From contig NW_024704742.1 in NCBI RefSeq assembly GCF_018977255.1, positions 26,600,001 through 26,664,000 on the forward strand: a stretch of DNA of 64,000 nt. Direction: 5' to 3'. This DNA comes from Callorhinchus milii. Lineage: Eukaryota. The position numbers and the translations under genes are program-made. Under the pieces are notes generated by a model. That model worked only from the letters and a program-made list of their open reading frames with translations, made no database searches and had not been told where the DNA came from. Shown here one piece after another: positions 1,309 to 26,875 of this stretch; within the stretch, counting starts at the first letter, position 1; each line of letters begins with the position of its first letter.

Positions 1309-3784
1309 GGTGATTTACAGCACACCAAATGCTTCCCTGGGTCAGATCAGCTAACTGAGCACAGAACAAAGATTTGTACAGTTTAGTATTTTTGAATGTA
1401 GGCAGCAACTTTACATTTGAAATTCTCATTTGCTAACAGTATGTAAAGCTGCACCATAATATTTTCCTTATCCCCTTTTCCCTCCAAAGTCACTCGTAAA
1501 TTTCAGGCCTTTGAGGTGCTCTGTTCCCTTCCACAGCACTTTAGACAATTACTTTACTTGGCCAGGCTTTCAGAAGCAGTGTATGCAGCACGTTGTTAAA
1601 CTCACAATTAAAATTCAAATGAAACTTTGCTAAGTACAGGAAGCCTGTTTAAGCTCTACTGCATCTCTTTTAGCTACACTCAGACCCACACTTTCGCCCA
1701 CAAAATATAGTCAATTCACTTTAAAGTATATTCTCTGAAGCGCTTTGAGACATCTTGAAGACGTTATAAGGTGTTGAATCAAATGCAGGGATTATTATTA
1801 TTATACTCAACTAACAAATATTAATGGTGCAGAATACTATTGAAGCAAAATATTACACTCTCAATAGAAGTCAGTGCATTAAAGCAAATGTCAAGTGGAA
1901 ACAATACATTCTCGGCACTATAAAAATAGACAACCTACAACTTTATTTCGTGCTCTGCCCCATTGCATTTGATCACATAGGAATCGTGAAACACATTTCC
2001 CAATACAGTAGTGGATGGGATAAAATAATGCATAAAGAAGCAACTTACACACCATGGTTTGAGGTAAATGCAATACTTTTACAGTTATTGACAATGTTTA
2101 GTTTTGTCATACTCTGTATCCATACAGAAGACCTGTACATTACCAGTGCACCCCACACCAATAGCAACAGCCTAAAATATCACCAGCCAAGAAATGATTA
2201 TCATGCAAAATCAGAGGTCAATGGTCCGCTGAATGCAACATGCCTGCTGCAAGTCTGACAAAGCACAAGACTAGCTCAAATGTCTGGGGAACTATTATCA
2301 TACACTGCTTATTCCTCAACAGATTATTGCAGAGGCAATGTGATCATGAATTTCTGATTTGCAAACCAAAGATTCCAGATTGCAAATAAATGTTGGACTT
2401 TGCATATTTAACACATTTGCAATCCATTATCATATTGCTGAGCAATTTTGAAACCCAAAGGAATCTTCTCTCTTTAAAGAACGATTCAACCTGAAACAAA
2501 TGGGCCAAATAGCCTCCTGTGGTGTCGCACATTTCTAGGTTTCGAATGGGTTCCTGTCTCACTGGATTCTCATCTCCCTGGAACAATGTGTTTAAAATTA
2601 CAAAACCTTCATGTTAAAAACAGTCTCCTCGGAAGCAAGTTCTGAAATAATCCCAGCAGATTCCCAGTGCAGCAATGCGCAACAGTGTCATTATAACTAA
2701 TTAAAACATTACAACTATCACAATAAATTGCTCACAGTGAAATGGCAAAGTTCCTTTAAAAGACTGCATTTTTGTTCAGCATATTCGTCAAAGTGATAAT
2801 TTTTTCCCCAATATGTTCTAAATCTAAGTCATTTTATACATACCGATATGGACAGCCTCTTCAGCATCACCTTCTGCATGAATTGCATATTCTGCCAATA
2901 TTGGCTGCCGTGTTTGCCCACAGAACACAGGCACTACACTTTACAGTATATCCTGTGAATCGCTTTTGGCTGTCCTCCTGCTGCAAATGGTGCCGTACCA
3001 AATATAAAATGTAACGTAATGTTGGGCAGGGACTTTGCAACATGAGGAAAATGAGAGAAAATGTTGTGATCTTTACCAAATCAGCTGAATCTTAAGCAAG
3101 AAAATAAATCACAATATTTGCATTAAAACCTTTATTTTAAGAAAAAGTCAATTCAATTTATATGGAAACTATGCCCGCGGGAGTGCAAGTCTGGGGAGTG
3201 CCAACCCAATTTCCACTTGGCATAAGACCACATTACCAAAAGCACGTACAATACTTAACATAACACGAGATAAGTCATCCATCCCATTTCTTCCACAAAC
3301 CATATATTGGCGGTGTTGTGGACATTATCTGACTGACCCACTCAATCTCCTCAGTCAATCACTCGAGCTCTAAGACAATTAAATTTACTCCCCAGCATCC
3401 AAGAACAATTGAACAAAAATTCTTAATATCAATGCTATTGATATAAAACTAATCTGTTGCAAAGCAGCAATTTCAGAAAAACTATAGAAGATGTGAAGGA
3501 AATGAGTGAAGAAATAAATACTGTAGTAAAACCACTTACATTTGATATGGCACCATTTCATGTTGGAAGTATATCTCAAAGCGCTTGTTTTACTGGATTT
3601 ACTGTAAATGTAAAGACTTTTTTTAATTAGTTGCAAGGGCTGCAAGACATTTGGGCACAAAATACAGAAATAACTTTGGTGCAAAAAGGAATATTATTCT
3701 CTGAGGCTGTGGTGAAAACAAATTTATTTCATTCCATATCTACTGGTACTATCATCGAGTTTCCTCTAAAACCCATTGATGCTA

Positions 3785-9775: not shown

Positions 9776-10507
9776 ACAGACCATAAGATCGTAGGAATCT
9801 GTGACAATGACTTTAGTTTTACAAGGGTCTCGAAACACTGCCATCCACTGAACCTTATCAAAATAAAGGCACATTGGAGGTTATTAGAGACACTGATAAA
9901 ATACTCTGTTTTAGCATTAAACTTCCATCATTGAATCAGTATTGCATATGCAGTCAAACTGCATCATAACCATAATACGCAGAAAGCAATTGCTGATGTG
10001 CAATATTGGATGCATTGCCCAAAATTCAATCACTCTGTTATTCCCAATGCTTCATACAATCTGCAAAAGGCAGAACTGGTCTCACCATTACATTTCCCTC
10101 AGCCCACTCACAATGCCCATAAAAAAAATGTTGCATTATTAACTTTATTAAACACAAAGCAGCTGGAATCCAGCAGCTCGTTTCTGTAGGAAATAATCCC
10201 ATTTATTTTCTAGAAGTTCAATGGATTTAGGAAAATGAAATCTAAATTAATATGATTCACCAGGCATTTAGTTTACAGTAAATAGCAATGCTACTCCAGC
10301 ACTGTTTCAACTATTGTTATGCACCGACCTTGTTTTTCTGATGGGTTTCGTATTTATGAGAACAGGCACTGACCTGCTACTTGGGAGTTTCACAAGAGGA
10401 ATGATAGTGGGTGGGAATAAAAAGGTAGGAAATTCATCCCAAAGGCCACTTGTGTAATTCCCGATGGCTGGTAAATTATTATTATTAAATTATTTATGAC
10501 TGAAGAC

Positions 10508-12620
10508 AACAACAAGATTACATTTGTTATGTATGTTACGTTATGGGGGAATAACATAAAGACAGTAGGCCTTTCACGTCGGGAGGACGTCCCAAGACAC
10601 TGGACAGAGTACAGCATTTCAGACTTGAGCTGGGTTCGGGGGGGGGGGGGGGGGAGGGGAAGGGGGGTGGCCGATGGCATGGTCAAAGCAGAGGATCTTG
10701 AGGCGGGACTTGAAGGAGGCTAAGGAGTGGGGGAGGCGGAGTGACTGGGGGATGGAATTCCAGAGGTTGGGGGCAGAGTGGTTGAAGGCTCTCCCACCAA
10801 TGGTGAGGTGGGTGGGCCAGGGGACATGGAGCAGGTGGAAGCCGGTTGAGCGGAGGGAACGGGCGGGTTGGGAGGGGATTAGGAGGTCGCAGAGGTAGGG
10901 TGGGGCGAGGCCATGGAGGGCTTTGTATGTGAGGACCAGGATCTTGAACTGGATCCTTTGAAGGATAGGGAGCTAATGGAGTCAGGCAAGAATGGGGGAG
11001 ATGGGGTCACGGAGTTTGGTGCAGGAGAGGCCACGGGCTGCAGAGTTAGTTCTGGATTATCTGCAGCCTGTGGAGGGAGGAGTTGGGAAGGCCGACAAGC
11101 AGGGCGTTTGCATAGTCGAGCCTGGAGGTGATGAAGGCATGAACAAGAGTTTCAGCGGCCTGAGGGGTGAGGTAGTGGCGAAGTCGGGCGATGTTATGGA
11201 GGTGAGGGGAAGCAGAGCGGGTCATGGCTTGGATGTGGGGGAGAAAAGACAGTTGAGGGTCGAACAAGACACCTAGGTTCCTGACTGGCTTGGTGAGTTG
11301 TAGTGAGCAACCATGGAGGTTGATGCTGCCAGAGCCTGAGGTGCAGAGGCGTTGGCGCGAACCAATCTGGAGGGCCTCAGTCTTGTTCACATTCAACTGT
11401 AGGAAATTTGTCCTCATCCAGGACTTGGTGTCCGACAGACAGTCTGTCAGGACAGCAGTGGTCCTGGAATTGAGGGTGGAGGCAGAAAGATAGAGTTGGG
11501 TGTCATCCACATACATGTCTGCGGATGATGTCACCAAGGGGGAGGATGTAGATATTAAAGAGGAGAGGGTCAAGGACAGAGCCCTGAGGGACGCCAGACG
11601 TGACAGTGTGGGGGCTGGAGGAGAAACCGTTAGCGGCAACAAAGTGGAGATGGTGAGAGAGAGAAGAATTGAACCAGGCAAGGGCAGATCCAAGAAGATT
11701 GAGTAAAGCGGAGCGGCGGTGTATGAGGATGGAGTGGTCGACAGTGTCGAAGGCAGCAGAGAGGTCGAGGAAGACAAGGAGGCCGAGGCAGCCCCTGATC
11801 ACAGATGTTTAGGATGTCACTAGTCACTTCGACCAAGGCTGTTTCCGTGCTGTGGACAGCGCGGAAGCTGGATTGGAGGGTTTCAAAGAGGGAATGGCGA
11901 GAGAGAAAGGAGCGGAGCTGGGACGCGATGACTCGTTCCAGGACCTTGAAGAGGAATGGGAGGTCAGAGATGGGGCGGTAGCTGAAGAGGAGGGATGGAT
12001 TCAGGGAAGGTTTTTTCAGGATGGGGGTGATGACAGCTGTTTTTAGGGGGGTGGGAACTGAACCGGTGGACAGGGAGAGGTCGATGACATTGGACAGGAG
12101 GGGGGCCAGAAGGTGGAGCTGGGAGACAAGGAGAGAGGTGGGGATGGGATCAAGGGAGCAGGTGATGGGTTTGAGTTTGCGGACAGTCGTGGTGAGGGAG
12201 GAGGGAGAGATAGGGTCGAAGGAGTATAGGGGGGATGGGTGGAGGGTGGGTCCTGAGGGAGAGGTGATGTAGGGATGGCTGTGGACGGGGCTGAGGTGGC
12301 TGAACGTGTCCCCTCGATTTTAGATTTGAGGAAGTCCAGCATCTCCTCGCAGTTGGAGTTTTAGGAGAGGATGGGCGAGGTATGGGAAGGTGGATGGAGG
12401 AGATGGTTAGTGGTGGAAAAGAAGCCAGGCGTTGTCCTTTGCCTCCAAGATAACCTTGGAGTAGAAGGAGGATTTGGCAGAGGTAACAGCGCAGCGGTAA
12501 GGTCTTGGTGTGGTGAAGCCAAATCTGCCGAAGGACCGTTAGTTTGGATTTGGTCCAGGCGCGTTCGGCAGCTCGCACTTGTGCCTTGAAGGAACGGAGA
12601 TGGCTGATGTACCAGGGGGA
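10508..12620 (-). mobile_element. L2-clade LINE, 5'-truncated, frameshifted RT and 3' tail
   Basis: Minus ORFs give LDLSAAFDTVDH, GVPQGSVLDPLLF, YVDDTQLY, LQLNVNKTE, VRNLGVLFD, HAFITSRLDYAN; tail cttgggacgtcctcccgacgtgaaaggc...ttgttg. Confidence 0.95.
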
Positions 12621-13227
12621 TTTATGACTGAAGACTTTCCTCTTCGACTGTACTTTTACCTCCTCCCTCTCCCCGGCTCAGCATCAGGCTCCGCCACTAC
12701 TAAGCGAAGACGCTGCCTCTCGTGATATATAAATGCACTATATAAATGCAAGTTGTTGTTGGTTCATGAAAGAAAGAGTAGGAACAAATTATTGGGTCAT
12801 TACATCTCTGTGGAATAAGCAAACACATGGCATGGGGAGAGAAGAGAAAAGGGAAATGAACAGATCTTAAGATATGAGATGAGAAACAACAGGCAGAGAG
12901 AGAATTAGTCTGACACACAGCGATTCCCAGATCAGAAACAACTGTGCAATACTGTTAAGCAGCAGCAGCAGCATTGTGAAAGAACTAGTGGTGACATTCA
13001 GCCACCAGCACACAAAGTATTTAACTCCCAGCACTGAAAATGAAAAATATACATTTTACCATTCAGCAGGCATGATGAGGACAACATTTAACAACTATCA
13101 CTATCTGACAAGTACTGAGTATTGCAATGGTTTAGCCCATCTTTCTCTTGTTGATTGTAAAGATCCTATGTGGAGCAATCTCAACCTAATTCCAAGAGCA
13201 TGAGCCCACGGTATATAACGTACTAGG

Positions 13228-18890: not shown

Positions 18891-19819
18891 GAAAATATCG
18901 TAAGTGAGTACATCTTGTACAGCAACAAGCAACATAACCTGCTAATCAACCATCATTATCTTTTGGATATATTTCTGCACAGATTTTTATTCGCACAAAA
19001 CATTGAAGTTTCATCTTAAATGGCACCAAAAGATGTTTAAATATCTGTACGGTAAATATTTGTACATTTGTTTAATCGAAAAACACCCCCCAGATTGTGG
19101 TGGAAATAATAATGTATTAAATAGTCATTAATGTTGGAATAATTTTGCCAGTTATTCCCCCCTCCCTGTGTTGAAGGAAAAGATATTGCACTTTCTCTCC
19201 CCCCAAAAATTCCAATGCAATGTACGTGTAAACAGAATCTTTTGCTCGGTTATCTGGCTTGCAAATATATGGCAGAGAAATCAATGTATAGGCTCCATCT
19301 CCCCCCCACGGTTTACTAGCAGACTGACCCAATTGTGGACGTTTTTTATTGAATAAGTCTCAGGAGGGATATATTGAAGTTTTTGGACTATAACAGCATT
19401 TTTGATTACAACACTATCATTATCATTAAATTCCTGATAACGCAACGTGGGTTAACTTGTCACTACCACAAAAGTCATCATGCTGCTAATATATACATTT
19501 TTCTATTTATTTACACTTATGCCTAACTCGTCATTCCAGATAATTCATCACTGAGCCCTCTTCCCTTGGAGCAACAAGTTATCAGGAGTTTACTGTATAT
19601 CCTGGGATTGCATTTACTGGGAAAATGGTCCATGCTGTTGCCTCCTACAGATGCAACAAATGCAACATTTATACTGCATCGAGTGCGGCACACTTCGGAA
19701 CAGGATTCTAAGATTCTGCAGGGATTGCAAAAAGAGTAGGGAATTGGGATCAGGTTAGTTAGTGGTGGAGCTGGCACCACCCTAGGCATTAATGGGCCAA
19801 ATGATCTCTTCCAAAGCTA

Positions 19820-20010
19820 CATTTTACATTACAATTTACATTTATACAACACCTTTCTTGTCGCAAGGCCATTTCTAAGCTCTCAACACCGCTTCTGGGC
19901 AACAGAGCTGTGGGAGGATACGAAAGGGAGTGGACTAGAAAGATGACCGAAAGTGCGATCAAAGAGATGGGTCTTGAGAAGGATCTTGAACGAGGTGAGG
20001 GAAGGAGTGA
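19820..20010 (-). mobile_element. L2 3' fragment
   Basis: SLTSFKILLKTHLFDRTF; tail with ataaatgtaaattgtaa. Confidence 0.7.
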
Positions 20011-20483
20011 TTTTTTCTGCATTTGGAGCATTGGGTGGAGTGGAAAAAACAAAGAATAGACATAGAATTTTTTCCACAAAATACACAAGAAACATTCAGA
20101 ACAAACAAAAAAATACCCTTTGACAACCTAAATCTTCACAAATGATTGTGTGCAAGTCAAATCAGTGGTCAAGCTGTGCACTTTAACAGTCATTTCTCTA
20201 TTTGGGGACATTTGTGGTGAGGTTGTGGGAATACAGCTGTGTCCCATATCTATGCATCTCGATATTTTCTTTCTCTCTCATGACACACACTATGAAGAAC
20301 ATGCAGTAAAAGGTGTTCATTAACTAGGTTTCTGCTGCAGCTTGTCCCGACCTGGCCACTGGGAGGTGTACAAGATCAGACCAGAGCTTTGATCCCCACT
20401 ACACCCCATCCCACCACCACCTCTTGTGGACAATGCCTCCACTTCTGTCCTTCCCTTAATGATTGAGTTCAGAAATCCTGCGC

Positions 20484-20507
20484 TGTGTGTGTGTGTGTGT
20501 GTGTGTG
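20484..20507. repeat. (TG)n microsatellite
   Basis: Seen directly. Confidence 0.95.
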
Positions 20508-21508
20508 CAGGGAGGGGGTGGAAATCAAAGGTCTAAACCAGTGAAAAGCAAATCAAGGCACAGCACAACAGCACATTCTGTAGACCTCATTCTGAAAAGA
20601 TATTTGGCCAACATTGAAGATCGTTTTCTTAAATGCTTCAGTATTATGCAAGTTACCAGTATAGAAAATACTGTGAGCTCCCCCTGAGGCACAAGTCATT
20701 TTTTTTCCCCCACATTGCCCGTGACTTAGTGTGTTGCCAACCAAGCTCTGTGTAATAAATGTCACGTGCCAACTTGCTACTGTCCGTAGATTTCATTGTC
20801 CGATTATCTAGTTCTCTGCCCTGTGGCAGAAACAGGCATGTATGAACCTCAAACTCACGTCTTAAGAGGAACAGGTATTGCAAATAAGCGATTTTAGGCA
20901 ATTTTACTGTGGATAACCGAGACCATGCAATTGCCGTCTTTCTCAGCAGGATTTTCTCTATACGGAATCCTCCTAAAATTCCCAATCAATAGCAGTCGGG
21001 GACCAGATCGCGTTGAGTGCCGTTGCTGTTGTGCTGTGCCACGTAATTCCTGTGACCGGAAGGAGTCCCTGTTCGTGTGACACGAATTCAACGAATCCCA
21101 TTTAAGAAACACCACACATCAGATCTCGCACATGTTAATTTTTATTTTGGCAACAAAAAAATGACCATATATGTTGGTTGAACCAAACGATTTGAACTGA
21201 CATTCCTTGAAAGAAGTATAGCTCAGCTGCATGACTGCTGCTAATACCACACAGTACTCGTATGCCTGCCTACTAGCGTATATACCTGCTGAGGGAGGTG
21301 GGGGGGGAAGGGGGGAAAGAAGAGAGAAATTTGCTGACTCATTACTTCATTTCTAACCTTGATGAGCTATGCACGGCATGACTTATACAGCTCACACTGC
21401 AATTCCGCAGGATTTCACCGAGTACGTCAGAAACACCACAATTACTGACAGCAGCTAAGGTTGGGAGGGGAGGTTTAAAAAGGCAGAGAAATAGAAAACA
21501 GACGCTAC

Positions 21509-21578
21509 CTTCTGTCACATAGTTATGGTCTCGGAGAAAGCTGTTGTTGATTTTTCGTGTATCAATGTCCTCGCCCAT
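21509..21578 (-). CDS. PPP2R2B: First coding exon of PP2A regulatory subunit B55 (Bbeta1-type N-terminus); most likely PPP2R2B, PPP2R2C not excluded
   Basis: Translates [23 protein letters not shown] + G, then donor AAG/gtagcg (intron starts 21508). Matches the B55beta ([23 protein letters not shown]) and B55gamma (MGEDTDTRKINHSFLRDHSYVTE) N-termini. 23 codons + 1 nt gives the phase needed to continue into [10 protein letters not shown]. UTR context aaataaccctgctgtcaATG resembles human PPP2R2B as recalled. Confidence 0.9.
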
Positions 21579-21657
21579 TGACAGCAGGGTTATTTGGCAT
21601 GCCGATCCGCAGTGGACTAAAAGAAGCAGGAGAGGTCGTCACGACAGCAGCATCCAT
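21562..21657 (-). CDS. Upstream overlapping ORF (31 aa, [31 protein letters not shown])
   Basis: ATG at 21657 in strong Kozak context (agtATGG); out of frame with the main ORF; TGA at 21564-21562 lies inside the B55 CDS. Translation not demonstrated. Confidence 0.5.
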
Positions 21658-21736
21658 ACTGCCAGTGCTCAGCAGAGGTGGAAGGCGGCGAGGGGTGTGG
21701 AGCACAGCATAATGTGGCTTAGTGATGCAGCACAGC
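21579..21736 (-). other. PPP2R2B: 5' UTR part of the first coding exon, with candidate splice acceptor at ~21736-21738
   Basis: Minus strand reads tttctctttctgtctctcttcatttccctctctcttttgtaaaaaNgctgtg: long polypyrimidine tract then AG if N is A or G. Confidence 0.55.
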
Positions 21737-22054
21737 NTTTTTACAAAAGAGAGAGGGAAATGAAGAGAGACAGAAAGAGAAACAAACACAACGGCTCCCA
21801 CCAAAGTGACAATGTCCAAAAAGAGAGAAGGCTGGGGCGGATGGGGGGGGGGGGGGTGGCGAATAATCAAAGCAAGAGGTGGCCCTTTTGTAGAACAGCC
21901 TTTCACTGGATGACTTATCCTGCAGTAAAAAAAGAGCAAATCAATCTTTCACTCAGGAACTCCTCAAACAAACCCCCGTGCAGAATCTACTCTCGAGTGC
22001 TGCTGCAGAATCTCAACGGATGCTGAGAAAGTGGCACGTCTGGGTAGCACTCAC

Positions 22055-22200
22055 TTAGAATAAGTGCACTGCTGCATTGGCTGCCTGTAGAGACTCAGTA
22101 AAACACGGGTGCTGTGTGACTGCTGCTGCCGCTGCTGTCATATGTGCATGCTGCATCAGGACAGGCCCCTCCCAGACATCCTGTCAGCATCCAACCACGT
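22055..22200 (-). promoter_or_regulatory. PPP2R2B: Core promoter / non-coding 5' exon containing a CAG tract, ending at a GTGAGT donor
   Basis: Minus strand: cgtggttggatgctgacaggatgtctgggaggggcctgtcctgatgca...CAGCAGCGGCAGCAGCAG...ctaa/gtgagtgc (GT at 22054-22053). Contains an Sp1-like GGGAGGGG. TSS not determinable. Confidence 0.6.
22120..22137 (-). repeat. Interrupted trinucleotide tract (CAG)2 CGG (CAG)3
   Basis: Plus strand ctgctgctgccgctgctg, seen directly. Confidence 0.9.
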
Positions 22201-23519
22201 TAGTCCGCATTTCTGGAGATGAAATATGGCACTGCAGGTGATTAAAAGGGGGAGGGAAAAAAAACACAGCTACCACCTTATTTACTGGAATCCTTTGGTA
22301 CAAAACTCTTCCGTGTTGGTGGGTGGATGAAAAGAAGCCAAAAGCAGGCGATCATTGGAAAATCATGAATAAATCAATTCCCTTTTAGAGGAAAGAGAGG
22401 AGAGAGAGAGAGACAGTACAATTGGCATGGCGCTCTGGTTCATCAGTTATTAGCCCGAGTGTGTGAAACGTGTAAAAGCATTGAAACCAGCAGCTCTGCT
22501 ATTAAATTGTACTGAGGTTTTGTCAGCAGATTCTGCCTGGAGCAATCAGTTTACTTGTTCTGCACTGTGTTCCCCATGTGCCTTTCAAATGAGGACCAAA
22601 ATGACTTATATACAAAAAAAAATGCAAACCTAACCTGCGTGGACAGTGCCAAGTTTCACTGCCGGTTAATGCCACTTTCCGCGGGTTGCCAAAAGCATTT
22701 ACATCAAAGCCATTAAAAGAAAATGGTCCATTACTGCAGCAACTTTCGCCTTCTTCAGTTAACTGGAATTTTACTGCAGTAATCATTCATCTATTTACGG
22801 TTGCAGCCCCACACTTAAAATCAGCATGATTGCATAGTGTACCACTGGTTGGATTATTCTGAATTTTATTAAATTCACACTGATTCATCTGGCTCGAAGA
22901 TGATGGGGCTACAATTTTAGGACGCATACAATTGTGAAAAATGCATTTGGCACAATCATTACACATTATTTTCCATCCAGATATCTTTCAGCACCTCACA
23001 CACTGAACATGTGTCCCTTTTGCACATCAGGCCCACTGGTGCCACTTCACACAGTGGAAAGATTATTTTTCTGCCTAACCTTTACCTTTGTAACTTGGTC
23101 ATTCAATCCACCACTGTTTGTGGGACACTGCTGTGCGTTACTGGCTGCCATGTTTCTCCCACAAAATCTACAGTCAATTCACTTTACAGTAAAGAGCTTT
23201 TGAGACGTCTCGAAGACGTGACAAGGCTCTATATCAAATGCAAGGATTATTATTATTATTATTACATTATGTTTTGGTGAATTTATGTTCTCATTCATGC
23301 AGGTTTGCAGGTTATTGCACAACAGCTTTACTGGATTTCACAAATCAAATAAAAAAAATCCCAGAGCCAGAAGTCACATAGAGTATGTTACATAAAAGCT
23401 GCAGGTCAGGAAATACAGGCCCACCCTGCACTGGGGTTTGTCCATAAACTCTGACCTTGTGGTATAAAGAAAGTTTAAAAAAACACTGGTCAGCACTTTC
23501 GGGGACATTAGGTCACCAC

Positions 23520-23600
23520 TGACATCATTTATGTTGTAAAGTGACATCAGCTGCACTTCCTATGCAGAGTGCAGGAAATGCCGCTGGCGTCACTTCCTTT
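23520..23600. promoter_or_regulatory. Candidate proximal enhancer: 2x TGACATCA, CAGCTG E-box, ETS cores, GGAAGTGACGC ETS/half-CRE composite
   Basis: Motifs at 23520-27, 23542-49, 23548-53 and 23587-97, ~1.4 kb upstream of the CAG exon. Motif evidence only. Confidence 0.35.
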
Positions 23601-25113
23601 AATAACGCTCATGGAAAGCGAGTCAATCAACGCCAGAAGTTTCAGATCCAGAATCTCAGTTCCACAATGTGCCTGAGCCATAAGCAGATCTACGCTAAAC
23701 TGGAGTAAGATACATAAGGGTTGCCCTGCAGTATTTGACAGGTTTCTAAGAAAAAAGCAAGACCTAGCATCTAACAAAAACTTGTGCAAACTTCTTATCC
23801 CGCGCTACAGTCTGTTATACAATAAGGCGAATTCCTTTCTTTGAAAATTCTTGGATCTTTTTAAAAATTAGTTTTGCTTTCATTTGGGAAAGGTTTGGCT
23901 AGCCAAGAATAAAGCGCATGGTTGTGGAGACAAGATGATTCTTCCAAAGGTATCACTGAAATCAGGTGAGTGGTTACCTGGGACGCTACCCCACATGAAT
24001 GGCACTATATAATAATAATAATAATCCTTGCATTTGATATAGCGCTTTTCACGTCGGGAGGATAAATCAATTTGTTGTTGTTGTTGTGCGAATCTTGATC
24101 AGCTTATCAAATAATCTCCCCACCCCCCCATGCCCTCAGACAAGTTACGTCTTTGAAATTGAAACTATCCAAACCATTGATTATTAAACTAAACTATTTA
24201 CTACTGAAGTTATCCAAACTGCATTATTATTATTATTATAATAATCCTTGCATTTTATAATGTTCTTTATCACGTTGTCAAGATGTTTCAAAGCACTTCA
24301 CTAAATATACTGTCAAGTGTAGTGAGTGTGTATTTTGTAAGCGAACATTGCAGCCAAATAAAATTAATGACTAATTGGGATTGTTTGGCAATGACACAGA
24401 AAAATTATTCTTCAGTCTGTCCAGTTCAATTATGTGGAGCCAATTTATTCCATTTTTGGCTAACTTATTCATTCCTTATTATAATATGATCATGATATAT
24501 ATATATAATATACACACACACATGCACACACAATGCAATGGAACATGATCACATTAAACAACAATGCTTCAAATGAATCAACAGGATAATAATAAAGGGA
24601 AATAATTGGCAACGCTTGTTGGAAAAGGAAAGAGGCTGACCACTGGATTGAGAACAAGACAGAAGGATTTCAAAAAAGAGAGATTAGGGGAACCAAGAGA
24701 TAGCTGAAAAGGGAAATAACAACAGATGCAAGACAGAACATCAAAATAATCTTGAAATATTCTAACAGTAAGAGAGTAGTCAGGAGAAAAGTTAAACCCT
24801 AAGAGATCTATACGATGAAAAACAGGGTAAACAGGAGAAGGTATACGCATAATACATTTTAACTTTTTTCTTAAAACTGGGGAGGCAACTGGGGAGGGCA
24901 TTAAAAAAAAACTTTCTGGCCCACTTCCACCACATATTGTCTTTAACTGATAGGCTCAAGGGGCTGAAGTCCCCCAAAATAGGCCCCATGGAATTATGAA
25001 CTGTATCTCAAAGATACTTAGAAAGATGAGTGATGGGTTCTATGAGGCACTCAATGTCAGGAATCACAAATGATAAGGTCCAGCGGGATGGAAGCAAACA
25101 AATGTGGTTCTAC

Positions 25114-25835
25114 AATCAATGTTGAGGCCAGAGGGCTGTAAGGTGCCCAGGAGGTGGAGGAAGTGCTGTTCTTAGAGCTTGCATTGTGCTTCGTTCGAAC
25201 AGCATAGGAGGCTGTGGACAGAGAGGTCGCAGTTGGGAGTGGGAAGGAGAATTAAAATGGCAAGTGACTGGAAGCTCAGGTTTGCACTTATGGGCGGAAC
25301 AGAGGTATTCAGCAAAGCGATCAGCCAATCTGCGTTTGGTCTACCCGATGTAGAGGAGACCACAGCGTGTGCAGTGAATACAGTAAACTGTAATCACACA
25401 CAGTATACTGGCCTCAACATTGATTTCAACCACTTCAGACCCTAACCACAGCTCCCACCCTCTCTCAGCCTTGCCTCCCGCCACCCATCTTCCCACACTT
25501 CTATAGCCATTAACACATCCTCTGGTTCTTATATGCATCTGTTCGCTCTATAATCCCCCTATTGCCTTTTGTCTTGCACTATCAACACCTCTAATCTCAT
25601 CATCTTCTGTCCTCCATCTAAAAATGTTTCCTTTGTCTTTCGTTCCCCGCCCCCTTCTCTGCTTGCCCTGATAATCTGCTCCCTTCCAACATCCCCTAGT
25701 TCTGACGAAAGGTTATAGATCTCAAATCTTTTCCTCATTTTCCTCTCTCCATAGATGCTGCCTGATCAGCTGTGTTTTCCCAGCGACTTCTGTGTTTATA
25801 CTAAATCTCCAGCATCTACAGTACTTTGCCTTTTT
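25114..25835. mobile_element. Penelope-like element fragment with internal inversion (GIY-YIG on minus; C-terminus and pLTR on plus)
   Basis: Minus 25114-25390: VYCIHCTRCGLLYIG*...LADRFAEYL...PVTCHFNSPSHS. Plus 25408-25835: GLNIDFNHFR*, then ttctgacgaaagg...agatgctgcctgatcagctg...tccagcatctacagtactttgc. Confidence 0.85.
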
Positions 25836-26875
25836 CTACTTGTGAGGGATTTGGCTTCCAGGGTTAACAGGAGCTAACCGAGAAGAATCCTTGTCCCCAG
25901 TGATTAGTCCTCCCTTCCTTCCAAGACAGGTTGCCTGGTCTGTCAACAGTGCCTTTGTAGAACAAAAGGAAAATAAATGAAATGAACTATCCCAGTTAGA
26001 CTGGGCACAATTTGGGAATAGATTGGCAGATTGGCTGACAGCCATCAGTAAGTGGCACAGGCGTGCACAAAAGAAGCCAACAAGAGGGAGAAATCAAAGA
26101 GACTAAATTAATACAAGAGGAAATGAAAAAGAGAGATGGAGTGATCTATATTCTGTGATTTTAATAGAACTGAGCAAAAGACATTTACGACATTGAAGAA
26201 AGCCGCAGAACACGATTCACAGACAACATAACATATCCATATATAGTCAATTCTAAACATGCATTCATTCTTTTAAAATTCTCTTCGAGCATCGATGGGA
26301 ATTCTATCTGGGAAGGGAGGGGGAAGGTAAGCAAGGTTTCCTTGAGGCTGAGTTGGATCCAAGATGATATGCTTGGCAACAAAATGTCAGAATCGAGTCA
26401 ACCCACTGCAGCAGTCTTGGTGGTACTCCAGGCACTGCTGACAGACCAGGTAACCTGATTTGGAAGGGCAGACTAATCACTGGGGGCAAGGATTCTTCTC
26501 AGTCAACTCCTGTTAACTCTGGAAGCCAAATAACAAGTAGGGTGTCCTTGGCTGGACAGGTAGATGAATGCTTACCAGGCAGTGCTCTCAATGACAAGGT
26601 ATACAATCTTAGCTGGTGAAACTCCAGGAGTACCACAACACAACTGCTAATATATCTACTTAGTGTGGGTTCTTGACAACCTGAGCCAAATACTTTCTGG
26701 AACTAAGTAAGCAAGGTGCATCTGTGCAGGAAGAGAGGCAATTCTATTCTAGACAAAGGGAAATTTCCATGTGTAGGTTGCATACATTTGTGAAACTCAG
26801 TCTGGTTTGGATACTCTTGAGCACAGTGATGGGTTTCCTCATGTGTCAGACATCCAGTTGACCAAAACAAAATTA
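25836..26875. repeat. Unclassified repeat, head-to-head pair 1 (minus arm 25836-25954; plus copy 26430-26875)
   Basis: ~115-bp inverted repeat; the plus copy is homologous to 35806-36188. Confidence 0.8.

Follow-up and report, generated by a model that had tools for sequence, protein, structure and literature searches.

The window analysed here is a 64,000-nt stretch (C1:26600001-26664000) of a 991.5-Mb cartilaginous-fish assembly. Its minus strand holds the first coding exon of a B55 gene, whose exon 2 lies 77 kb downstream; the whole gene spans ~126 kb and ends, on the same strand, at position 26495674 of the contig. Upstream of this exon are found, in order, a block with a TGAC-type site and a G-box, an upstream ATG with a short ORF, a short CAG tract and an octamer resembling a splice donor (Table 1). 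The arrangement given in the original prediction, with the block, the tract (CAG)2CGG(CAG)3, GTGAGTGC ~65 nt further on and ~540 nt left to the B55 ATG, was recovered in full on this strand. The same is true of two details that it had pointed out within the block, namely a G-box that is present and a TGACA that stands where a human guide RNA carries TGACG.

Table 1. Features upstream of and within the first coding exon of the B55 gene in the window (positions count from the first letter of the window).
Feature	Position	Strand	Basis or remark
Upstream block cGTGGttggaTGCTGACaggatgtcTGGGAGGgGCCTgtCCTgATGCA	22199-22152	-	Read from the sequence
Block parts, in order: CGTGG..TGCTGACA, G-box TGGGAGGGGCC, CTGATGCA	within 22199-22152	-	
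Upstream ORF, 33 codons, MQHAHMTAAAAAVTQHPCFTESLQAANAAVHLF and stop	22156-22055	-	Its ATG is that of the ATGCA motif, 22156-22154
CAG tract (CAG)2 CGG (CAG)3, short and interrupted	22137-22120	-	Sequence read and pattern count in the window
Octamer GTGAGTGC, 5' splice-donor-like	22054-22047	-	Starts 65 nt past the tract end
Candidate splice acceptor tttgctctttttttactgcag, then GAT	21920-21940	-	Sequence and MAFFT
Transcribed part of the first coding exon: 5' leader and 23 codons	21855-21509	-	X2, X3 and X4 contigs
B55 first coding exon, Bbeta1-type, 23 codons, phase 1; its ATG 541 nt past the tract end	21578 (ATG) to 21509	-	

Four B55 paralogues were identified in the genome, on contigs C1, C13, C7 and C28, the first being that of the window. 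A tree of 29 rows was built from exon-stitched models of these four genes and 25 database proteins. In it, the C1 model belongs to the gamma clade (support 100/99), as do gamma proteins of Panthera, Miniopterus, Equus and Spea, and within this clade it joins the protein P0111 of the bamboo shark in a subclade of cartilaginous fishes (99/95). In each of the 10 exons compared, P0111 is nearer to C1 than to C13. Database names are not uniform, since two rows of the gamma clade bear other names at their source (P0040 'beta' and P0117 'delta'). The C13 model lies outside the gamma clade and not inside the beta clade, with which it forms a polytomy, and the C7 and C28 models group with alpha/delta-like rows. 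With mammalian beta, the type-1 (beta1-type) exon of C13 shares 88% identity and the window's exon 77%. An exon of the Bbeta2 type (MKCFSRYLPY-like) was found at C13 only (E 1.8e-9); alternative first exons of the WCF[TS]QVKG and Bbeta2 types were looked for in the window and gave no convincing match there. Solved structures searched with the 23-aa first exon returned 0 matches.

The neighbourhood of the C1 gene was also informative. A 618-aa ORF at C1:26475151-26477004 (+) matches the Pfam families WC-rich (1e-34) and WCOB (6e-35), both wolframin domains. This wolframin (WFS1) ORF lies 18.7 kb past the last exon of the B55 gene and on the opposite strand. At human 4p16, WFS1 and PPP2R2C are arranged tail to tail, and no WFS1 counterpart is known adjoining PPP2R2B. 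Because of the gamma-clade placement and the WFS1 neighbour, the gene of the window is orthologous to PPP2R2C (B55 gamma), not to PPP2R2B, and the C13 gene is PPP2R2B (beta)-type. The identification of the window with the human SCA12 locus, as originally proposed, is thus lost, given that the tree and WFS1 both assign the gene to gamma and that the beta-type gene on C13 has its own copy of the element. Of the neighbours proposed for comparison at the time (DPYSL3/STK32A vs CRMP1/WFS1), WFS1 was found next to the C1 gene, in the PPP2R2C arrangement.

Upstream of its type-1 exon, the C13 gene carries GGTTGGAcaCTGACAagctgtaGGGGAGGaGCatctgCTGATGCA and, 14 nt further on, CAG TAG CAG CAG. This copy sits ~567 nt upstream of C13's own MEEEIDTRK exon. 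We aligned about 820 nt upstream of each of the two start codons, leaving out the coding exon, and the best local alignment consisted of the block and tract (window 22196-22109 on the minus strand vs 2120-2201 of the C13 locus L036). Its score of 29 compares with 12.27 +/- 1.55 for 300 dinucleotide-preserving shuffles, the highest of which scored 21, so that 0 of 300 reached the observed value. The identity is moderate, with gaps, and the likeness is confined to ~90 nt; the surrounding upstream sequence is otherwise poorly alignable, apart from patches adjoining the ATG and the candidate acceptor, which MAFFT pairs with ...ccaatag followed by GAT in C13 (columns about 440-460). The pattern CTGACA-N5-12-GGGAGGNGC-N3-8-CTGATGCA has 2 matches in the 991-Mb genome, the C1 and C13 copies, and 0 control matches; because it was drawn from both copies, this count shows only that nothing else resembles them. 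The two copies are alike in having the block, an upstream ATG (MQH...), a CAG-type tract and a similar distance to the start codon, the block starting 618 nt upstream of it in C1 and 567 nt in C13. They differ in the tract, which is shorter in C13 and interrupted by TAG rather than CGG, and in the octamer, since C13 lacks GTGAGTGC and has a weaker GTAACC at the matching place. Runs of (GA)n flank the C13 copy. The element is therefore a non-coding sequence shared by duplicate genes, alike beyond chance, in the same position at both and otherwise single-copy. The alternative envisaged in the original prediction, a PPP2R2C gene without a shared promoter block, is contradicted by the alignment, the motif and the shuffles, all of which place the block in both paralogues.

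A CpG island is usually recognised by a CpG observed/expected ratio of about 0.6 or more together with high G+C. Neither upstream region qualifies: window positions 21500-22300 have a G+C of 0.497 and a ratio of 0.43, and the C13 region has 0.525 and 0.59.

Within the window, the parts of the element differ in how far they stand out from chance. The 18-nt tract, with up to 1 mismatch allowed, has 1 match vs 0.00 expected from shuffles. For CAGCAGCAG, there are 3 matches vs 0.57 expected, and the remaining two overlap one another at 12960-12971. The octamer, with 1 match vs 1.67 expected, is unremarkable taken alone. The pattern CGTGG-N2-6-TGCTGAC, which was chosen post hoc, has 1 match, at the block, vs 0.01 expected. 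Tandem Repeats Finder (minimum score 30) gave 7 rows in 20500-23500, none of them at 22120-22137, and the tract is below microsatellite size. A DNA search with 901 nt matched the window itself as its sole hit; the block accordingly does not belong to a repeat family. Rfam, run on 19000-26000, gave nothing at the block; two sub-threshold microRNA-like matches at 23541-23594 were its only output. A scan of metagenomes with TGCTGAC-N5-12-TGGGAGGNGCCT-N4-8-ATGCA yielded no vertebrate DNA; its 1 match, on a 22-kb marine contig, lies within an apparent bacterial dehydrogenase-like gene and was set aside as a chance match.

Contigs of four sequencing runs, X1-X4, could be placed on this region; all four consist of contigs and are guessed to be RNA, as no run listed for the region is on record as such. 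Record 10 of X2 (1329 nt, depth 134) lies on 21509-21855 only, and record 17 of X3 (897 nt, depth 41) on 21509-21804 only. The X4 contig, from another organism (5 differences in 152 nt), ends at 21509 as well, and its loose end past this point reads as the exon-2 codons ADIISTVEFN. From these contig ends, the donor after 21509 and a leader of at least 277 nt are real. On the 5' side, both the X2 and the X3 contig stop at a run of 14 C, where an assembly break is likely. Record 2 of X1 (255 nt, depth 4.1) covers 21954-22208, and with it the block, the tract and GTGAGTGC, without a joint and with the same tract length as the assembly; it may be RNA, unspliced RNA or DNA. No contig of X2, X3 or X4 lies over 21934-22257, an absence that says nothing on expression, and no contig of X1-X4 joins across 22054-21920, which says nothing on splicing. 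If the candidate acceptor at 21920 were used, it would close an intron of 135 nt from 22054. For the human repeat region, the literature speaks variously of 'exon 7', of '5'-UTR/non-coding' and of splice variants 7B7D and 7C7D.

An upstream ATG opens the reading frame in all four copies compared, with M-H-Q in human, M-Q-H in C1 and C13, and M-Q-P in bamboo shark. In the window, the ORF that it starts reads the tract as Ala, and its stop TAA directly abuts the GTGAGT of GTGAGTGC. This ORF begins MQHAHMTAAAAAV, where the bamboo-shark protein P0111, an automatic gene model, reads MQPAHMTAAAAAG; the ORF and the N-terminus of that model share 23 of 36 residues (E 6e-6), and all three gaps in their alignment are whole codons. 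Among 463 candidates, the bamboo-shark N-terminal extension was found in 1, P0111 itself, and in no other protein. The C13 ORF has 40 codons, starts MQHIPSSSSSF and reads its tract in the Ser frame, as in human. The frame of the tract thus differs between beta and gamma; the shared constraint would therefore act on the nucleic acid, or on the presence of an upstream ORF, not on the peptide.

The human flank was compared by way of printed oligonucleotides, a printed TTAA distance and protein translations, and several of the patterns used were chosen post hoc. According to PMC8110799, the guide sgRNA-B, upstream of the repeat in PPP2R2B exon 7, covers the first 20 nt of the flank, TGACG included, and a TTAA is located 25 bp upstream of the repeat. 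An SCA12 reverse primer, GCCAGCGCACTCACCCTC, contains the complement of GTGAGTGC (PMC4733707). The pieces that the window shares with these human oligonucleotides, CGTGG..TGCTGAC and GTGAGTGC, stand in it in the right order. In the primate isoforms, the N-termini read ...LLTRLGGASPLMHQPPPASC(S)n CECARVGVRVSALA; in primates and other mammals, the repeat is read as poly-Ser after M-H-Q, preceded by ...LLTRLGGASPL. Human isoform 7 (P0096) starts MHQPPPASC(S)10CECARVGVRVSALAP, and a Cercocebus model (P0113) continues further upstream as ...CWERVLGLLTRLGGASPL. The human flank given in the original prediction was borne out in the parts for which such material could be found: the first 20 nt, with TGACG (PMC8110799), the last octamer (PMC4733707), and the primate N-termini.

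The translations add further points of contact. Proteins with an isoform-7-like extension numbered 21, all of them mammalian. In mammals with short tracts, the Ser run is interrupted by Gly or Arg, and a CGG interruption, such as that of the window tract, gives Gly in the Ser frame. Just upstream of its ATG, the C13 leader aligns with the stretch GPWCSP...GSWILVC of the translated primate leader (E 1.2e-4, vs 4 kb), so that orthologous non-coding sequence survived at this locus. Scanning with a 27-aa primate upstream peptide was less telling: the best segment at the block came 180th of 6384 in the window, and in L036 the top segment in the block range came 32nd of 384 and starts only with the upstream ATG, past the block itself on the downstream side. 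A tblastn search of the window with the primate N-terminal extensions gave Pro/Ser-rich low-complexity matches only, at 10.6-12.4 kb and 33.6-34.0 kb. We regard it as likely that the block is homologous to the human SCA12 flank.

The window copy and the human SCA12 site are alike in preceding a first coding exon of the same type and in the order of CGTGG..TGCTGAC, G-box, ATGCA with its upstream ATG, CAG tract and GTGAGTGC, as checked against oligonucleotides and translations. The CGG-type interruption of the window also resembles the Gly-interrupted Ser runs of short-tract mammals. The differences are that the gene is PPP2R2C in the window and PPP2R2B in human; that the window tract has 6 units with one interruption, whereas normal human alleles are given as 4-31 triplets in the literature; that TGACA replaces TGACG; that the tract lies ~540 nt from the ATG in the window and about 260-290 nt in human (estimated from the 106-codon extension of isoform 7); and that, read from the upstream ATG, the tract is Ala in the window and Ser in human. 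A further parallel is offered by exon 2 of mouse Ppp2r2b, which is described in a preprint as having 'a short, interrupted repeat' (bioRxiv 10.1101/2023.04.02.535298). As in the window, a short interrupted tract stands there at the place of the human repeat, and this state would therefore be usual outside primates. Unlike the mouse sequence, which is an orthologue within mammals, the window copy belongs to a paralogue. It is also ~450 million years removed from mammals.

Conserved non-coding elements retained by both copies of gene pairs from whole-genome duplication are a known general class. The present element resembles them as a short block that holds the same position at both duplicates while its surroundings have diverged beyond alignment. 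It differs from them in including a low-complexity triplet tract, normally the fastest-evolving kind of sequence.

The window copy and the SCA12 site are sister copies in paralogous genes, not orthologues. In our preferred reading, the element is an ancient promoter/leader module common to the beta and gamma B55 genes, and its proto-CAG tract probably predates their duplication. The module, of 90-150 nt, would comprise the TGAC(A/G) half-CRE-like site, the GGGAGGNGC G-box, the conserved upstream ATG, a short CAG-type tract and a donor-like GT, and would stand at the head of the first exon of 'type-1' in the two neuronal B55 genes. It would most likely have been present, proto-tract included, in the single beta/gamma ancestor gene. 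As the block is common to both paralogues, its dating shifts to before the beta/gamma duplication: the great age originally claimed for the element holds, and its origin moves further back than the jawed-vertebrate ancestor then proposed. In exon 7 of human PPP2R2B, the tract at this place would have lengthened into the polymorphic SCA12 repeat, and in the shark the tracts may have been kept short by their interruptions, CGG in gamma and TAG in beta. Judging from its sequence, the module could act as the proximal promoter and the start of the 5' leader, with the factor sites favouring neuron-type transcription and the upstream ATG and short ORF dampening or tuning translation. CREB1 and SP1 are reported to raise, and TFAP4 to lower, B55 promoter activity (PMC7554801).

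Several other explanations have to be weighed. An orthologous relation of the window to the human SCA12 (PPP2R2B) locus was suggested by its Bbeta1-type first coding exon, by flank blocks that resemble the documented parts of the human flank and by the name 'beta' given at its source to P0040, a shark protein of the same clade. This reading is now very improbable, as C1 sits in the gamma clade (100/99) with WFS1 adjoining its gene, the Bbeta2-type exon and the more beta-like first exon are both on C13, and the Ser frame of human isoform 7 is kept in C13 whereas the window tract is in the Ala frame. It could also be that the shark beta/gamma element is real and that its likeness to the human flank arose by chance or convergence, the human repeat being independent. 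In 5' regions one often meets GC-boxes, GT donors and short runs of CAG, GTGAGTGC by itself has an expectation of 1.67 per window and is lacking from C13, the block does not stand out in the scan with the primate peptide, the human-matching patterns were picked post hoc, and 21 of 21 isoform-7-like proteins are mammalian. We nevertheless consider such a coincidence rather unlikely. The order of CGTGG, TGCTGAC, G-box, ATGCA, tract and GT donor is the same upstream of homologous first exons, the upstream ATG is in all four copies, the C13 leader is homologous to the mammalian leader (E 1.2e-4), and the Gly-interrupted Ser runs of short-tract mammals fit a CGG interruption like that of the window.

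A further explanation places the main constraint on protein coding, either in a translated upstream ORF or in an N-terminal extension of B55 gamma, with the block as a mere flank. The 23 of 36 residues identical to the bamboo-shark model with whole-codon gaps, the upstream ATG present in all copies, and the translation of the region in human isoform 7 and in 20 further mammalian protein models would all be expected in this case. However, the tract is Ala in gamma and Ser in beta, so that the DNA is conserved between the paralogues and the peptide is not; the window ORF reaches its stop at 33 codons and is unable to lengthen B55; most of the conserved block precedes the ATG, and in that frame the block has a stop; and P0111 is an automatic model whose extension recurs in 1 of 463 candidates, itself. 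A primarily coding role is thus quite improbable. Recent gene conversion, or a mobile or repeated element, might have left a likeness limited to ~90 nt in poorly alignable surroundings, as is seen between C1 and C13, but a moderate, gapped identity misfits a recent event, there are two copies only in 991 Mb, the 901-nt DNA search matched the window only, and the copies stand at the same distance from homologous exons on different contigs. We give this explanation next to no weight.

The role of the normal SCA12 repeat is unsettled, and the literature describes the repeat variously as promoter, 5' UTR, or translated poly-Ser or poly-Gln. Our search of the literature, in which few subscription journals were covered, found no paper on conservation of the site outside mammals or on an element shared by beta and gamma. 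An ancient module common to the two genes, with a block and a retained proto-tract in both, is a testable point for the field of repeat-expansion loci. If the tract and its flanks were kept in both ohnologues, the repeat would sit in an old functional module, not in drifting sequence, a minimal and naturally short interrupted version would be on hand for reporter and upstream-ORF tests, and PPP2R2C would be the place to seek a sister tract in humans. More tentatively, the tract might have been held with its flanks and the upstream ATG at one place in both genes since before the vertebrate genome duplications, and might itself be a working cis element, for instance as codons of a regulatory upstream ORF or as a factor- or RNA-binding site, rather than a neutral by-product of slippage. 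Human PPP2R2C would then be predicted to carry an unrecognised sister of the SCA12 repeat region.

Read in the frame of the second short upstream open reading frame, the tract (CAG)2CGG(CAG)3 encodes Ser-Ser-Gly-Ser-Ser-Ser, and the same peptide contains an LGGA that matches the one in the primate upstream translation, which reads ...LLTRLGGASPL before the repeat. Besides its copy in the block, CAGCAGCAG occurs within the window only at 12960-12971, in the G-skewed stretch of intron 1, whose Pro/Ser-rich open frames draw low-complexity protein matches.

Features of the window, the WFS1 neighbourhood and the flanks of the beta copy (L036, a stretch of contig C13)
Feature	Position	Strand	Remarks
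14-C run in 5′ leader	window 21842-21855	minus	sequence read
Second short ORF, 31 codons	window 22095-22190	minus	start inside block; peptide MLTGCLGGACPDAACTYDSSGSSSHTAPVFY
G+C-rich (0.47-0.55), strongly G-skewed (0.29-0.40) stretch	window 10000-13000		inside intron 1; composition
Large last exon of wolframin (WFS1) gene	G000:C1:26475151-26477004	opposite B55 gene	outside window
Long low-complexity minisatellite-like ORF stacks	C1:26419000-26423300 and 26455500-26462800		between WFS1 and B55 genes, and beyond both
(GA)n runs	L036 2085-2110 and 2210-2240		flank beta copy of block on both sides
(GT)n run	L036 ~2785-2805		downstream of first coding exon

The leader and first coding exon of the B55 gene were also covered by contigs of sequencing runs that are only guessed to be RNA. 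Contigs of two of these runs (X2 and X3) end at the 14-C run, where 31-letter contigs from another organism are also stacked, and the assembly itself carries a single N at 21737. A spliced contig of X4, a run from a different organism (coded B), spans 21509-21660 with 97% identity to the leader and first exon, with mismatches at 21589, 21593, 21595, and 21606. A second X4 contig departs from the first exon at 21508, and the different sequence that it enters may represent an alternative splice partner.

Thousands of contigs from three runs align at 85-95% likeness to about 100 nt at 23091-23195, with summed depths of 1e4-1e5. Most likely, this segment is a SINE-like interspersed repeat of very high copy number, carried in many transcripts.

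Finally, the position of two database proteins in the B55 tree contradicts their source names. A cartilaginous-fish “beta isoform X1” and a “delta isoform” (P0040 and P0117) both fall within the gamma clade.
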